The position numbers and the translations under genes were made by a program. 64,000 nucleotides of DNA from Shigella phage PSD9, in sequence record MZ561532. The stretch is one strand, 5' to 3'. Below, piece after piece: positions 6,605 to 15,562 of this stretch. Each line of letters begins with the position of its first letter. Positions within the stretch are counted from its first letter, which is position 1. Below the pieces are notes generated by a model that was not told the origin of the DNA, made no database searches, and saw only the letters and a program-made list of their open reading frames with translations.

Positions 6605-8686
6605 TTACCCTTGGATGAATTTTTCTGGGATGTCATAGAGGTCTATGCATGAAGCCAAAAGAGGCAGTACATCAAACCGTGTAGATTTAACAAATGAATC
6701 AAAAGATACAGGGCTTTCGGAAGTATCGAAGTCATCTTGATATACGACCAACTCGCCGGTTTCCATTAGTACATCACCATCATATACCACAGATTCTTGA
6801 AGCTCATCTGTTGTCATAACTTCAGCTTGAATGAGTTTTGTATTACTAGATGTTGTTCCATCATTATTAGAAGCATCTGTTATTTTATTAACTTTGACCA
6901 TTAATCCACGCGGTAGAATAACTTCAGCTTCAGTTGCTATTCCGAGATTTCCTGGATATACGACATTAACTTTATGGGCCCCATCAATAGCCCATCCTAT
7001 TTGAACCTTAACGTAATCGGGATTTTCCTTATACGCTCTTATTTCATTAGGATTAATAGTTATTCCTTCTTCATTTTTATCAACTGTTAATTCGTTGCGA
7101 ACTTCCGGTTCTAAAAGACCAATACCAGCGTGCGTAACACCAAAACGTCCGAAAATTATAGGAGTTAAAGAAGTAGATACAAAATTTCTGAAATAGAACA
7201 CTTTATTTTTAACTAGTGCTTCGTATATAGGAGCAGTCATACTCTGTGCACGATAAACTGTGATGCCTTCTGGTATACGGTCGCCATTTTCAAAAGCGGA
7301 ATCCAAATTATTAACTGCAGATTCGATATCTTTTTCGCTCATAACCTCATAGTTCTGAGGATTATAACGTCCTAAAAGAAGATTATTTATGTCTGTATAT
7401 CCTGAACCACAATATTCTCTGATACCACGCTTTTGTGATGGAGTATATTTAGAACCTTCACGAGCAATAGTAATATCAACCATAATACCACCACCCACAC
7501 CAGCAAAACTATACACGCGTTTTTTAATGAACTTAGTCTTGGCTGCTTTCCACTTGGCCTCTGTCAATTCGTTCCAAAGGTCATCAGGTTGGCCTTTACG
7601 AGTTCTGTTATGGATAGCCAGCCACTCGCCTTTATATTCTTCGAAAATGGTATTAATAGCAGAGGCATATTTTTCTAGAGCTTTAACAGATGTCAAAGGT
7701 TCGTTTTTTATTGCTGTAAGAATTTTCTCTTTAATTTTCTCTTGGATTTCGCCAATACCGTGAAGTGGGAACATTTTATAATCGTAATGCAATTCTTCAG
7801 CAGTGCCTTCAGCCACTATATTAGCAACCTTATTTTTAGCCGCAGGAGAATTGTTATTAGTAACCATTTCCTGAGCCTCAGGGATTAATGGAACTGTTGC
7901 CGGTTTATTAAAATCCGCTGCAGTAGCTTCATATTTCTTAAACAATTCACTTTCATTACGATAAGATTCCAATGATTGGCTTGCTGCAATGGCGCGCCTA
8001 GAAATCTTAGTCTTGGTTATAACCATTTTATCAGTGCGACGTTCTTCAACCTTAGCAATACTACCGGCGATAGCAGTTTCTTTAGTAACCTGCACGCCTT
8101 CTTTTTTAGAAATATAAACTTCACCGACATCAGAATCTACCTTAGTATACAATTCAGCATTAATTCCAGGCATACCTTTGATATCTTCTATATCAGCTTG
8201 TTTACGAACTACCAGGATGTAAGTATGTTTACCGGTAAATTGGTACATAGCCGGAACTACTTTAAAACGTCCGCCTGTTTTCTGTGCTACCAAACGTTGG
8301 ATAATCCGTTGAACGATAGGGCCTTGACCTTTCATTTTCTTAGTAGGGAAACGGAACATCACGGCATCCATACGAAGCTTTTTAACCTGTTCGAATACTA
8401 CGTCGAAAACGGTATTAATAGCATCAATAGGAGTAGGGCCTAAGCCACCTTTAAGTTCTGCTGGAGTACCTTTAGCTGAAAGGCTCATAAGGATAACGTG
8501 GGCATATTTATCACCCATCTTAACCTGTTTAATAGCATCGCCTTCAGAAGCATAGGATACCATACGTGCTACTAACTGAGACTCCGCGTCTCCAATCTTC
8601 CAAATCTGAGGTACTTTAAGTTTTGGGTTCAAGTTCACAACAGGCAGTGTACCTTCGGACTCGAACACTTCATTTAATTGGGTCAT
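6605..8686 (-). CDS. alt: Alt-like ADP-ribosyltransferase, paralog 2 of 3
   Basis: 693 aa; motifs TVYRAQ, FVSTSL, EAEVILPRG; shared N-terminal region beginning MTQLNEVFE. Confidence 0.7.
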   Translation of the reverse strand: MTQLNEVFESEGTLPVVNLNPKLKVPQIWKIGDAESQLVARMVSYASEGDAIKQVKMGDKYAHVILMSLSAKGTPAELKGGLGPTPIDAINTVFDVVFEQVKKLRMDAVMFRFPTKKMKGQGPIVQRIIQRLVAQKTGGRFKVVPAMYQFTGKHTYILVVRKQADIEDIKGMPGINAELYTKVDSDVGEVYISKKEGVQVTKETAIAGSIAKVEERRTDKMVITKTKISRRAIAASQSLESYRNESELFKKYEATAADFNKPATVPLIPEAQEMVTNNNSPAAKNKVANIVAEGTAEELHYDYKMFPLHGIGEIQEKIKEKILTAIKNEPLTSVKALEKYASAINTIFEEYKGEWLAIHNRTRKGQPDDLWNELTEAKWKAAKTKFIKKRVYSFAGVGGGIMVDITIAREGSKYTPSQKRGIREYCGSGYTDINNLLLGRYNPQNYEVMSEKDIESAVNNLDSAFENGDRIPEGITVYRAQSMTAPIYEALVKNKVFYFRNFVSTSLTPIIFGRFGVTHAGIGLLEPEVRNELTVDKNEEGITINPNEIRAYKENPDYVKVQIGWAIDGAHKVNVVYPGNLGIATEAEVILPRGLMVKVNKITDASNNDGTTSSNTKLIQAEVMTTDELQESVVYDGDVLMETGELVVYQDDFDTSESPVSFDSFVKSTRFDVLPLLASCIDLYDIPEKFIQG

Positions 8687-8694
8687 AATCTATC

Positions 8695-10590
8695 CTATTT
8701 AAATAAATTTGCTAATTTTTCCATAGAATCTTCATACATAATTCTATCATAATTTCCAAACGAGAATCCGGTGCTATATGAATTTTCCTCTGTGATTTGC
8801 TCGGTAGCTACAACTTCACATTCCACTAAAACATATTTACCAATTGAACCCATAGGTCCCTTGGAAGCACCGTATACTTTATTAATCTTAAGCATAACCC
8901 CACGAGGAAGAATTACTTCGGTTTCTGTAGACCAATTAGCCAAGTCACCGGGCACAATAACCTTAATTTTATCAGCACCTTTAATAATTAACCCTAGCTT
9001 AATGGTATCTCTAGCACTTCCGGTCGCACTTTTAATGGTGTCTTCAAGATTACTATCTATATCGCTAGAAAGAGCTTCAGGGTCTAAGTTGGATTGAGCA
9101 TGACCCATTTCACCGAAAATATTAGGAGCCAATGAAGTTGATGCAAAAATAGGAAGATACATCACCTTATGTTTTATAGAATTCAAAGCCATTTCGGTAG
9201 GCATTATCTGAGAACGATACACTATGGTTCCTTTAGGAAGTTTTGTACCATTTTCAAATGTAGAATCCAACTCACCAATCATTTTTATCATTTCATCGGT
9301 GGTATCTGTTTTACCTAGCAAAAAGTTGTTTATATGGTTGTAGCCGCCACGAGTATACTTTTTGACTGCCTCTTCTTGAGGTTTGGATAAATTAGGATTA
9401 TCAGATATCTTAAACAATGGTTGGATAGATTTTGTATAAACTGCTACTAAGGATTTTATTACTTCCTTGATTTTAGATTCTCTAGCCCAAGTACCTTTAA
9501 CTGAATCATCTAAAAGGGCCGCAGCGACTAGTCTAAGAATGTCTACATGAGATTTACCTGATTTTAAAGCCTCTATGACACTATTAGATTTATCTAAAGA
9601 ATCTGATGCCTCTAAAGCAAACTTTATATCAGCAATTAGTTTAAGTTTGCGCTCGTCTACTTCAAATGATGGATTAACACCGTTAAAAATATAATCCAAA
9701 TATTCTGCCATTTCTTTAGAGGTGTCTTTTAATATTTTATTACTGGCTAAAGCTATTTGGCTTTCTTTAGAATCTTCAGAAGAATGAACGGAACTAGTAG
9801 CAGAATAATCTGCATAAGCTTTTTTGTGCTCTGCCGAAAATTTACTCAATCCTGTAGGCTCTGCTGTAGGATATAAAGCATTGATAGCAGCACGTTTAGA
9901 AACCTTTGTTTTGGTTATAACAGTTTTATCAGAACGTGATTTTTCTATTTCGTCTATGGACTTAGCTATAGCTTCTAGTTTGGTAACATCTTCGCCTGTT
10001 TTCTTTGAAACATACACGTCACCGACTTCAGATTCGACTTTAGTATACAATTCTAAATTAATATTAGGAATACCATTTATAGATTCTATATTTTTATTTT
10101 TACGATAGATAAAAACATACGAATGCTTACCGGTGAATTGATACAAGGCATCAAGAACTTTAAACTGTCCGCCTGCTCTAGAGGCTATTAATTTAGCCAA
10201 TACCCTCTGTATAGCTTTTTCCTGCCCTTTCATTTTCTTGGTAGGAAAACGGAACATAACAGCGTCCATACGAAGGGCCTTGACCTGTTCATAGACGATA
10301 TCAAATATAGAACGAATAGCGGAAATAGGATTGGTACCTAATCCACCTTTGAGTTCGGCAGGAGAACCTTTAGCCGATAGGCTCATTAAAACGACATGAA
10401 CATACTTGTCACCAGGCTTAACCTGACGAATTACATCGCCTTCGGAAGTATATGAAACCATGCGGGCAACAAGGTTCTCATTACCTTCAGCCTTTATATT
10501 CCAAATCTGTGGTACTTTAAGTTTAGGGTTTAAATTGACAGCTGATAAATCTATAGCGCCGTCAAATACCTCATTCAATTGTTCGGACAT
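8695..10590 (-). CDS. alt: Alt-like ADP-ribosyltransferase, paralog 3 of 3
   Basis: 631 aa; motifs IVYRSQ, FASTSL, ETEVILPRG; shared N-terminal region beginning MSEQLNEVFD; SD AGAGGAA. Confidence 0.7.
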   Translation of the reverse strand: MSEQLNEVFDGAIDLSAVNLNPKLKVPQIWNIKAEGNENLVARMVSYTSEGDVIRQVKPGDKYVHVVLMSLSAKGSPAELKGGLGTNPISAIRSIFDIVYEQVKALRMDAVMFRFPTKKMKGQEKAIQRVLAKLIASRAGGQFKVLDALYQFTGKHSYVFIYRKNKNIESINGIPNINLELYTKVESEVGDVYVSKKTGEDVTKLEAIAKSIDEIEKSRSDKTVITKTKVSKRAAINALYPTAEPTGLSKFSAEHKKAYADYSATSSVHSSEDSKESQIALASNKILKDTSKEMAEYLDYIFNGVNPSFEVDERKLKLIADIKFALEASDSLDKSNSVIEALKSGKSHVDILRLVAAALLDDSVKGTWARESKIKEVIKSLVAVYTKSIQPLFKISDNPNLSKPQEEAVKKYTRGGYNHINNFLLGKTDTTDEMIKMIGELDSTFENGTKLPKGTIVYRSQIMPTEMALNSIKHKVMYLPIFASTSLAPNIFGEMGHAQSNLDPEALSSDIDSNLEDTIKSATGSARDTIKLGLIIKGADKIKVIVPGDLANWSTETEVILPRGVMLKINKVYGASKGPMGSIGKYVLVECEVVATEQITEENSYSTGFSFGNYDRIMYEDSMEKLANLFK

Positions 10591-10824: not shown

Positions 10825-12348
10825 TTATAGTCCAGTTTGAGACCAATCACCAAATACATCTTCAAATGTATCAGCTTCTGTTTTATCGAAACGCCAACCT
10901 TTAATGATTGGAAGGAAAATACCTACAGTATCGGTACGTCCTTTAGAATGAACCCAACCATTACATTCACAGTCAGCAATACGTCCAATCAACTTACCTT
11001 CACGAGCTTGTTTCATAAGAAGTTCACGGTCTAAATCAGGACGGTCTTCCAATGGAATCAATACTTTTTTACCTGATTTATCTTTCTTATGGGTGGTATC
11101 TTTAAAGCCTGAACCACAGTCGCTTGTAATTCGACGACAACGTGATACCAACTCGACACCACCTAGCTTGTTAGGGTCCTTCGAGTGTTCATAATAACCC
11201 ACCACTTCTAAAGCAATATCGATTACTTCTTTGAACTTGATAAGATTCTTAGAACGACGGTTTTCCCAGTAGGAGTCCATGTTCTTAAGGATAATGCCTT
11301 CCAGACCTTGGTCGACATATTTCTTATAAACGACTTTAGCTTCTTCAAGATTATTAACCCACTGGTTTTCGATAGCTTCAACACGCGTTGTACCATGCAA
11401 TACGACATTATGAGCAACCATAAGTTCTAAGGCTGTAAAGCGTACATCGTACTTATCGCCTTTAATTTTACCTTCGGAATATACGACATCCAATGGGACA
11501 TAATCCCATGCCTGTAATACCATACCAGCGGCTTCAGTAGCCGAAATAGTTCCTTGAAGAGCTTTGTTAGCCAAGCCATTTGACGTAGAACGATCGGCGA
11601 CAGTTTGGAATTCCTTAGCCTTACTTAATTCAGGAAGTTCCTCGTCAAACATACTAAACAAATCATTAGATGCTTTAGGTTCTACCTTAGGAGTATGGTA
11701 AACTAATTCGCCATCAATCATAACGCCATTAGGATGGCGTTGTCGAGCTTCTTCGGTCATGGCCATTAATTCAGCCGCCAAAAGATTAAGCCCTTGATAT
11801 TCGTTACCACCACGAGTAAGGAATGTCACACCATCGTTACGAACTTCGGCAAAACAACGAGCACCATCAGCTTTTAATTGAGCAAACGCTGGCCATTTAA
11901 TATTTTTCTTAATCAAAGCTTCATCATAAGAACTCGCCAACATCTGCGGTTGTTCAGGGATTAAACCTTTCCAAACCTTGTTAGCAATAGAAATCGATGC
12001 ACCACATTCAAGGTCGCGCATCATTACACGACGTAATACCTCGGCATCCAGGGCCTTAGCATCAGCAATGATTTGAGCCAGTTCTTCAATAGCCGCATTA
12101 CCCGTAATCTTACGTGTGGCTAATGTGAATTCAGCGAAATCAAGAAGGTCTTCAAGAGTAATCATACCAAAGGATTGAGATGTAAATCCAGGTTCTGGCC
12201 ACTTTTTAATACCGTAGTTCAGACGACGGGTATAAGCCATACGATAAACACGTTTCAGAAGCTCATTGTTCTTTTCACGAGCAATAATGGCTTCTTTAGC
12301 TTTAGTAGAATCAATAGCAGCAATTTCGTTTAAAATATCTAAAATCAT
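10825..12348 (-). CDS. 30: ATP-dependent DNA ligase
   Basis: Adenylation motif KADGARC; strong end-to-end resemblance to T4 gp30; start set at MILDILNEIA (track start is 13 codons upstream). Confidence 0.9.
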   Translation of the reverse strand: MILDILNEIAAIDSTKAKEAIIAREKNNELLKRVYRMAYTRRLNYGIKKWPEPGFTSQSFGMITLEDLLDFAEFTLATRKITGNAAIEELAQIIADAKALDAEVLRRVMMRDLECGASISIANKVWKGLIPEQPQMLASSYDEALIKKNIKWPAFAQLKADGARCFAEVRNDGVTFLTRGGNEYQGLNLLAAELMAMTEEARQRHPNGVMIDGELVYHTPKVEPKASNDLFSMFDEELPELSKAKEFQTVADRSTSNGLANKALQGTISATEAAGMVLQAWDYVPLDVVYSEGKIKGDKYDVRFTALELMVAHNVVLHGTTRVEAIENQWVNNLEEAKVVYKKYVDQGLEGIILKNMDSYWENRRSKNLIKFKEVIDIALEVVGYYEHSKDPNKLGGVELVSRCRRITSDCGSGFKDTTHKKDKSGKKVLIPLEDRPDLDRELLMKQAREGKLIGRIADCECNGWVHSKGRTDTVGIFLPIIKGWRFDKTEADTFEDVFGDWSQTGL

Positions 12349-12358
12349 AATCACCTCA

Positions 12359-12637
12359 TTAGTCATGGATTCTATTATAAGCCACATCAGCCAAAAGCAA
12401 GTCTAATCGCTTATGATAAGAGAACACAAATCTCATTCGCCCATCAGATTTGAACTTGGACATAAAGTGGACATAAATGAATCCCTGTTCGACGCATTCG
12501 CGCCAAACAGGATGGTCTTTAGCCGGATTTACATCAAATGAGTAATCATGATTCACATGACGAATAAACTGGTTTACATGACCATAATCCATTGTAGTGG
12601 TAGGACCATAGTCTGAAATTGTATGAACTACAAACAT
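12359..12637 (-). CDS. hypothetical protein
   Basis: Start taken at internal ATG (MFVVHTI...) with GAGG SD, which avoids overlap with upstream gene. Confidence 0.4.
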   Translation of the reverse strand: MFVVHTISDYGPTTTMDYGHVNQFIRHVNHDYSFDVNPAKDHPVWRECVEQGFIYVHFMSKFKSDGRMRFVFSYHKRLDLLLADVAYNRIHD

Positions 12638-12638
12638 A

Positions 12639-13277
12639 TTAACCTCGAGCAATCCATTCAACTGCGGCATTATTACGAAGGGATTCGATTGCTGCGATAT
12701 CGTCCCATGAATTAACCTTTACGGCTAAATTAGGTTTAAAGTCACGTTCACCACGAGCTAACCAATAAACTTGGATATCCATGAGAACATTAGATGCAGC
12801 ATCACAGTGGTGAGCCAAATCATCAACATAAAACTTAATACGTTTACCGTACGTATTTTTAGCTCTTATGAAGAGGTCTTCTTTTGATTCTGAATGACCA
12901 CACATCAGAATCTCCTTGAATGCGCCAGGGAACAAAGCATTCAAATTGAATTGTCTATTCAGCAGTGCATCAATTGAGTCGCCTAGCGCAGTCACGGCTA
13001 CAAAATCGAAGTCTTTTTTGAGCTTGTTGATATGTTTTAATGCGTCCATGTAAGGAGACAGATAACGAATAAAATCTGACTGATTGTACTTCTCGATTAA
13101 ACGAGCGCCTAATTCATTATCACAATTAAACAGCTCACCAGGAGATAAGAAACGTTCGTCCTGAATCATATTCAAAATATGTTCTAAAGGCAAATTATAT
13201 TTCTGTGCGAAATAAGGCAAGCCGGACTGCCAACTTAAACATACTCCATCGATATCTGTTAAGATAACTGGTTTCAT
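12639..13277 (-). CDS. HAD-superfamily hydrolase-like protein
   Basis: N-terminal motif I LTDIDGV (DxDG) typical of HAD phosphatases; 212 aa. Confidence 0.5.
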   Translation of the reverse strand: MKPVILTDIDGVCLSWQSGLPYFAQKYNLPLEHILNMIQDERFLSPGELFNCDNELGARLIEKYNQSDFIRYLSPYMDALKHINKLKKDFDFVAVTALGDSIDALLNRQFNLNALFPGAFKEILMCGHSESKEDLFIRAKNTYGKRIKFYVDDLAHHCDAASNVLMDIQVYWLARGERDFKPNLAVKVNSWDDIAAIESLRNNAAVEWIARG

Positions 13278-13741
13278 AATAAATCTCTCAATTTGTTTAG
13301 GATGTCGATAAACTCTTTTTCAGTTAGTATTGTATCACATTCTGTAAGGTGGCTCGCCATCGAATGCTTTAAAACTTTGCCCTTTGTAGCTTGTAATGCG
13401 TCGCGGAATCCTTTGTTTTGGAGCGCTGCTTCAAAATAAGCATTTGTATACAACTCTTTCCATGATGCAGAGTATCTTGAAAAGGGAATTCCAAGCCAGA
13501 AAAGCGTCCCACGGTCCGCAGCTCTAGCATAAGCTCTTCCAGTTTGTTGTGCGGCCAGACCGGACATCCCAAATATACGTTTTTGTTGTTCATGATTTCT
13601 CACCTTACATCCTTGGAGGAATCCTTCGAGCCCTCCAAATTGGATACCATCCATAACGAAAGGCCATTTAGCAAAGTTACTTAATGCACACGATGGCCAT
13701 GGAAAATTGCTTCTTATTTCTAACTCAGACATCTTTGACAC
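13274..13741 (-). CDS. NADAR/YbiA-family (DUF1768-like) protein, tentative
   Basis: LSNFAKWPF...DG motif resembles the FSNFAAWP core of E. coli YbiA recalled from memory; 155 aa. Confidence 0.45.
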   Translation of the reverse strand: MSKMSELEIRSNFPWPSCALSNFAKWPFVMDGIQFGGLEGFLQGCKVRNHEQQKRIFGMSGLAAQQTGRAYARAADRGTLFWLGIPFSRYSASWKELYTNAYFEAALQNKGFRDALQATKGKVLKHSMASHLTECDTILTEKEFIDILNKLRDLL

Positions 13742-15348: not shown

Positions 15349-15377
15349 CATTTTTTTAAAGATTTAGAAACAAAAAT

Positions 15378-15395
15378 GGGACTCCGAAGAGTCCC
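15378..15395 (-). terminator. intrinsic terminator (GGGACUC-UUCG-GAGUCCC + U-tract)
   Basis: 7-bp stem, UUCG loop, followed by AUUUUUGUUU on minus RNA; 6 nt after stop of the 53-aa ORF. Confidence 0.55.
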
Positions 15396-15400
15396 ATAAC

Positions 15401-15562
15401 TTATGCCTGAGGCTTACCAAAGCAAGCAGCATCTGCACGCAATACTGCACGAGCACGAGCTTGAAGCTTATCAACTACCTGATTGATACGCTTGTTGGAC
15501 GCACGCTTGTAACCAGCGCGTTTAGAGGTACCGTCAACTACTTTAACTTCTTTCTTAGCCAT
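15401..15562 (-). CDS. small basic protein, 53 aa (not in ORF track)
   Basis: Hand translation MAKKEVKVVDGTSKRAGYKRASNKRINQVVDKLQARARAVLRADAACFGKPQA; ATG to TAA; terminator immediately downstream. Confidence 0.35.
   Translation of the reverse strand: MAKKEVKVVDGTSKRAGYKRASNKRINQVVDKLQARARAVLRADAACFGKPQA

Follow-up and report, generated by a model that had tools for sequence, protein, structure and literature searches.

According to the papers that cite it (PMC11825919, PMC11543638), the bioinformatic study of de Souza and Aravind (2012) defined the NADAR superfamily and classed gene 30.3 of phage T4 as a phage NADAR. Schuller et al. (2023) reported that NADARs undo the ADP-ribosylation that DarT1 places on N2 of guanine. 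They also described the last strand of these proteins, where the Glu of the YbiA type is replaced by Asp in the DarT-associated group and by His in the phage NADARs. In 2024, purified T4 gp30.3 was found to remove guanosine-ADPr, and not thymidine-ADPr, from DNA; T4 gp30.3 did not rescue uninfected cells from DarT1 toxicity (PMC11125620). In 2026, a study that likewise describes removal of G-ADPr and not T-ADPr by the T4 protein in vitro reported that the enzyme leaves cytidine-ADPr, that the phage NADAR consists of the core domain only, and that G-ADPr in RNA is also cleaved by NADARs (PMC12945103). The "T4 gp30.3" construct of the 2024 Toxins paper is listed as residues 1–208, and the T4 gene encodes 152 aa.

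In 2025, Johannesman et al. renamed gene 30.3 adfN (PMC11825919). Purified T4 AdfN strips ADP-ribose from DarT1-modified DNA, and deletion of adfN makes phage T4-GT7 sensitive to DarTG1 (PMC11825919). Among T-even phages, full-length adfN alleles correlate with DarTG1 resistance. RB69, in which a frameshift in adfN deletes the last 15 residues, is sensitive to DarTG1 and is rescued by ectopic AdfN(T4) (PMC11825919). Protection against DarTG1 during infection was shown for the T4 and T2 alleles only. T4 AdfN helps non-T-even phages weakly, and its full activity requires a T-even factor (PMC11825919). The failure to rescue uninfected cells, together with the weak help to non-T-even phages, means that the described mechanism is incomplete and implies a further phage factor. 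The feature considered here is already known: the family dates from 2012, its biochemistry from 2024, and the anti-DarTG1 role of AdfN from 2025.

We analysed a window of 64,000 nucleotides from Shigella phage PSD9 (MZ561532). The earlier note had pointed to a 155-aa ORF with a motif of the LSNFAKWPF...DG type. This ORF, for which the note gave no strand, was confirmed on the minus strand as a maximal frame of 155 codons that begins with GTG (13274..13741). The motif as found is ALSNFAKWPFVMDG and occupies residues 16–29 in the numbering from ATG. The start codon had to be corrected. A length of 152 aa and the N-terminus MSELEIR are common to T4 gp30.3 and the closest homologs in the databases, which favours the ATG at 13732, three codons 3' of the GTG. 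Thus, the product is likely to be a protein of 152 aa. It matches PF08010 (Phage_30_3, "Bacteriophage protein GP30.3") over profile positions 2–138 of 138 with E=3.6e-64 and 215.2 bits, the gathering cut-off being 36 bits. Since the match is this strong and a gp30.3 homolog occurs in 1510 phage records, nearly all of them labelled "hypothetical protein", we judge the ORF to be a genuine gene and not a chance frame. The stop codon of the upstream 30.4-like ORF shares bases with the adfN ATG (ATGTCTGA), and the adfN stop overlaps the ATG of 30.2 as ATGA. With overlaps at both ends, adfN lies in a tightly packed run of small genes, probably translationally coupled; for adfN and 30.2, the ATGA overlap makes such coupling probable. 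The coordinates of the features are collected in the table.

Table. Features of the adfN region in the window (positions are those of the whole stretch)
Feature	Position	Strand	Basis or remark
adfN, ortholog of gene 30.3; predicted phage-type NADAR DNA ADP-ribosylglycohydrolase, 152 aa	13274..13732	-	maximal GTG ORF reaches 13741
Codons 36-43 (EGFLQGCK), predicted catalytic Glu36 and Lys43	13604..13627	-	invariance, YbiA alignment, T4 mutants
Codon 123, His123, phage-NADAR signature in the last strand	13364..13366	-	invariant; end of predicted strand 120-122
Last 15 codons (138-152), predicted C-terminal helix	13277..13321	-	segment lost in the inactive RB69 allele
Gene 30.2 ortholog, HAD-like	12639..13277	-	74% identity to T4 gp30.2; phrog_420; weak NT5C/HAD matches
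Gene 30.4 ortholog, 70 aa	13725..13937	-	phrog_2042 E=3.6e-34; tblastn to T4 30.4 46% identity
Three tandem Alt-like ORFs, 707, 693 and 631 aa	4478..6601, 6605..8686, 8695..10590	-	all PF03496 ADP-ribosyltransferase

The T4 annotation places a second frame, 30.3', inside gene 30.3. This frame is open in both phages. In the window, it is a 74-aa ATG ORF at 13369..13593 (-), in the +1 frame inside adfN, and it shares 61% amino acid identity with its T4 counterpart. An equally long open frame was obtained in 9–23% of synonymous-codon shuffles. The third-position divergence was 28/75 inside the overlap and 27/78 outside, that is, no lower inside. Neither the shuffle test nor the codon-position test gave a sign of selection, and 30.3' was rejected as a second gene.

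The protein in the window is 86% identical to T4 gp30.3 across 152/152 aa. The alignment is gap-free, and none of the 22 substitutions falls in an invariant column. With its counterpart in the Dhakavirus-type phage WG01, the window protein shares 100% identity, and with those of many other phages 91–95%. At the DNA level, the 2.2 kb around adfN are 97–99% identical to the Dhakavirus-type T4-like coliphages IME540, WG01, QL01, and Bp7. The gene order alt-30-30.1-30.2-30.3-30.4 is the same as in the annotated T4 genome, with a DUF3045 protein as the counterpart of T4 30.1 and the DNA ligase (gene 30) further downstream. From this agreement of sequence and order, we identify the gene as adfN, the ortholog of gene 30.3, in a T4-like coliphage of the Dhakavirus type. 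The gene can be annotated as adfN; about 1500 phage records still call it hypothetical. Among PHROGs, the protein matches phrog_652, of unknown function. The profile of phrog_652 has 296 positions, and the window protein aligns to 126–272; some members of the gp30.3 family are about 201 aa long. The alignment offset and the longer members imply that some of the family are extended at the N-terminus.

A strong terminator-like hairpin at 15376..15397 (-), with a 9-bp stem, 5 GC pairs, a GAAG-type tetraloop, and a T-run, lies just after a 53-aa ORF (15401..15562). The hairpin is a possible boundary between transcripts, upstream of the run of genes 30.8-30.1. A scan for sigma-70-like promoters gave 9 sites against 13.6 expected from shuffles. 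Since this is no excess, no transcription unit was defined. The mechanical ORF of the DNA ligase (10825..12387, -) encodes 520 aa, and a start MILDILNEI appears 13 codons in. This resembles MILKILNEI, which we take to be the N-terminus of the T4 ligase. The true ligase start may therefore lie near 12348, and in that case the apparent overlap with 30.1 would disappear.

Assignment to the NADAR superfamily, which the earlier note had made from the motif, required more than a profile search. The Pfam family of the protein is PF08010 and not PF08719 (NADAR, formerly DUF1768). For the window protein itself, PF08719 gave no match at E<=1. The search against the Pfam NADAR profile suggested in that note was thus negative for the protein but positive for its relatives, 11 of 54 of which match PF08719 directly (best E=1.5e-7). 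The sole NCBIfam match was TIGR02464 (riboflavin biosynthesis intermediates N-glycosidase), at E=0.098 and 12.9 bits in the motif region against a cut-off of 73.7 bits. At permissive thresholds, the sole match among PDB sequences was YbiA (2b3w), again in the motif region; the E value was 1.2 for the single sequence and 0.021 for a profile of the 55-sequence family. Because the protein stays below the thresholds of PF08719, YbiA, and TIGR02464, the superfamily call is based on the structure and the bridging relatives. The AlphaFold2 model, built from 54 homologs with the T4 sequence left out, had a mean pLDDT of 95.1 and a pTM of 0.88. The top three Foldseek matches in the PDB were YbiA 2b3w, the Phytophthora NADAR with ADP-ribose (8bau), and the Geobacter NADAR (8bat). 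Only YbiA reached E<=0.001, and the fourth match was at E=6.6. The model thus has a NADAR fold, and this decides the question of membership. The comparison with YbiA proposed earlier came out as expected, and the sub-threshold matches on the motif, the bridging relatives, and the modelled fold together uphold the original family call. This case shows that a family call made from a motif without tools can be right.

As YbiA gives the best single-sequence match together with TIGR02464 and also heads the Foldseek list, we considered whether the gene encodes a housekeeping N-glycosidase of the YbiA type. Such an enzyme would act on riboflavin-pathway intermediates in metabolic damage control and not in DNA de-ADP-ribosylation. 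Both sequence matches, however, are far under their thresholds, and the last-strand Glu that defines YbiA is replaced by the invariant His123. In addition, the T4 ortholog has DNA G-ADPr hydrolase and anti-DarTG1 activity, and control of riboflavin overflow is of no obvious use to a lytic phage. We regard this explanation as extremely unlikely.

Next to the fold, the key residues speak for an active enzyme. Among 55 homologs, L17-S18-N19-F20, E36, G37, F38, Q40, K43, and H123 are invariant. The E-x(3)-Q-x(2)-K segment, whose Glu and Lys contact ADP-ribose in NADARs, is conserved as E36, Q40, and K43. In the YbiA segment SEHYFQAQK, the Glu and the Lys are the residues aligned to E36 and K43. 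In T4 AdfN, the substitutions E36A and K43A lower the activity (PMC11825919). The last-strand residue is His in gp30.3-type NADARs versus Glu or Asp elsewhere (PMC11125620, PMC11543638), and H123 of the window protein fits this description of phage NADARs. In the AlphaFold2 model, residues 138–151 form a predicted helix with a pLDDT of 94–98, and in the alignment the C-terminus is the same as in T4. Truncation of T4 AdfN at the RB69 point lowers its activity (PMC11825919).

The RB69 frameshift shows that a non-functional natural allele exists (PMC11825919), and the databases hold several truncated or split homologs, for example entries of 89–126 aa. It could be supposed, then, that the allele in the window is inactive or decaying like that of RB69 and is retained by synteny only. 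The gene itself argues against this. It is full-length and gap-free against T4, it keeps E36, K43, H123, and the C-terminal helix, and its product shares 100% identity with that of WG01 and 91–95% with those of many other phages. The T4 and window genes differ at 88 nucleotides, and 55 of these are third codon positions. Such an excess at third positions is expected under purifying selection. Decay of this allele is hardly credible.

Since E36, K43, H123, and the intact C-terminal helix are all present, we conclude that, very probably, the gene is a functional adfN whose product removes ADP-ribose by hydrolysis from guanine in the phage DNA and so neutralises defence of the DarTG1 type. The present analysis established that the gene is an ortholog of intact length, that its product has the NADAR fold, and that the catalytic residues are conserved; for the chemistry and the phenotype, we rely on published work on the T4 ortholog. 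We infer that the activity of T4 AdfN can be transferred to this allele, which is 86% identical and keeps all key residues. In the proposed mechanism, the DarT1 toxin of a host DarTG1 system would put replication-blocking ADP-ribose marks on the phage DNA. During infection, the minimal, core-only NADAR enzyme would cut the N-glycosidic bond that links ADP-ribose to the N2 amino group of guanine. By removal of the DarT1 marks, the phage would in effect have an "orphan antitoxin" of its own. In nature, the enzyme could have substrates beyond the products of DarT1, as NADARs also cleave G-ADPr in RNA (PMC12945103). The earlier note had cited a link of family members with ADP-ribose processing, including reversal of DNA ADP-ribosylation, and experiments on the T4 ortholog have demonstrated this reversal (PMC11125620, PMC11825919). 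The role that it proposed in counter-defence against DarT has likewise been demonstrated for the T4 ortholog, during T-even infection and not by expression in uninfected cells (PMC11825919). An intact allele predicts that the phage resists E. coli carrying DarTG1, which is relevant to the prediction of host range in phage therapy.

We also assessed the argument that adfN is linked to the ADP-ribosyltransferase genes of the same block. The triplet itself is real, with three ORFs that match PF03496. T4 has one alt gene and the short remnants alt.-1 and alt.-2, versus three full-length paralogs here. One could suggest that AdfN protects the phage from its own Alt paralogs or regulates their action by removing the ADP-ribose that they place on phage or host nucleic acid or protein. 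The three paralogs lie 2.7–9 kb off on the same strand, and the alt/30.x neighbourhood is also present in Acinetobacter phage KARL-1 and Aeromonas phage phiAS5. However, the DNA ligase, 30.1, and 30.2 stand between the triplet and adfN, and the proximity corresponds to the conserved gene order of T4 and the Straboviridae. No alt gene is found near the relocated NADAR gene in Vibrio phi-ST2, Klebsiella TU02, Rhizobium RL38J1, and Brevundimonas Gurke. Alt is a protein-modifying enzyme, and the DarTG1 phenotype by itself accounts for selection on the gene. The published NADAR substrates are nucleobase-linked ADP-ribose (PMC11125620, PMC12945103), and the one demonstrated is guanine-ADP-ribose in DNA modified by the host toxin DarT1, not the protein targets of Alt. 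Of the earlier argument, the triplet stands and the functional tie is unsupported, because the order is that of T4 and is lost elsewhere. A role in handling the products of Alt therefore seems very unlikely, and protection against DarTG1 remains the preferred reading.

For the T-even factor needed for full AdfN activity, the HAD-like gp30.2 is a candidate. The gp30.2 ortholog has an N-terminal TDIDGV motif and weak matches to NT5C and 5'(3')-deoxyribonucleotidase, and the KARL-1 ortholog matches PF00702 at 6e-4. In the window, it is 212 aa long versus 278 aa in T4, being 66 aa shorter and devoid of the T4 C-terminal tail. In favour of this candidate, its start codon overlaps the adfN stop in the window, and its gene immediately follows the NADAR gene in the window phage, T4, and KARL-1 and is two genes off in phiAS5; in a Klebsiella Jiaodavirus, the 30.2/NADAR pair is split. 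In Vibrio phi-ST2, a different HAD enzyme, a 5'(3')-deoxyribonucleotidase of the NT5C type (E=3e-12; L008, 4458..4958), overlaps the stop of the relocated NADAR gene. A HAD-type gene thus recurs beside the NADAR gene in several Straboviridae, the NT5C gene of phi-ST2 being unrelated to gp30.2. In the non-Straboviridae phages, jumbo-phage contigs, and Bacteroides chromosome examined, gp30.2 is absent from beside the NADAR gene. The numbers of records are close (1447 for gp30.2 and 1510 for gp30.3) with similar distributions, and this comparison is confounded by shared ancestry. The adjacency of 30.2 and 30.3 may be conserved synteny alone. The adjacency is not universal and the downstream gene in the jumbo-phage contigs is unrelated, and gp30.2 was rejected as an obligate partner. 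That gp30.2 is the T-even factor we consider very improbable.

Relatives of the gene occur outside the T4-like phages. Jumbo-phage-like metagenome contigs of up to 308 kb (L003, L004, and L005) carry a gp30.3-type NADAR in a setting of many small genes that lack annotation; NUDIX hydrolase genes and Thg1-like genes lie 3–5 kb away. The 254-aa gene just downstream of the NADAR gene in these contigs matches no PHROG and does not resemble gp30.2. A PF08010 NADAR also occurs alone in a Bacteroides sp. MAG, on a 995-kb contig (L002, 6001..6444) that is apparently bacterial chromosome. The gene for methionyl-tRNA synthetase lies downstream of it, and a 125-aa phrog_2072 protein is encoded before it. 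This copy could be a stand-alone bacterial gene or a prophage remnant.

Compared with DarG1, for example the Geobacter lovleyi NADAR (8bat), the window protein has neither a partner toxin gene nor the N-terminal extension. Beside adfN, there is no gene for a DarT1 toxin, the neighbours being 30.4 and 30.2, and the PADLOC models of defence systems gave no match. The alt genes encode exoenzyme-type ARTs of PF03496, not DarT. In the last strand, DarG1 has Asp, whereas the window protein has His, and the T4 ortholog cannot replace DarG1 in uninfected cells. E. coli YbiA differs in carrying Glu at the place of His123, and its sequence match to the window protein is sub-threshold. YbiA belongs to a chromosomal housekeeping gene or SOS-operon gene and not to phage counter-defence. 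AdfN(Bas32) and AdfN(Bas60), from T5-like and Vequintavirinae phages, are likewise orphan NADARs; they act against DarTG1, with specificity for guanine-ADPr (PMC11825919). They belong to other NADAR clades, were acquired independently, and work without the T-even co-factor (PMC11825919). T4 AdfN is the closest system. The differences are the 22 substitutions, the shorter 30.2 neighbour, and the host phage, which is Dhakavirus-type with WG01, QL01, and Bp7 as relatives, a genus absent from the published test panel. Common to both are the slot between 30.2 and 30.4, E36 and K43, His123, the C-terminal helix, and the core-only fold.
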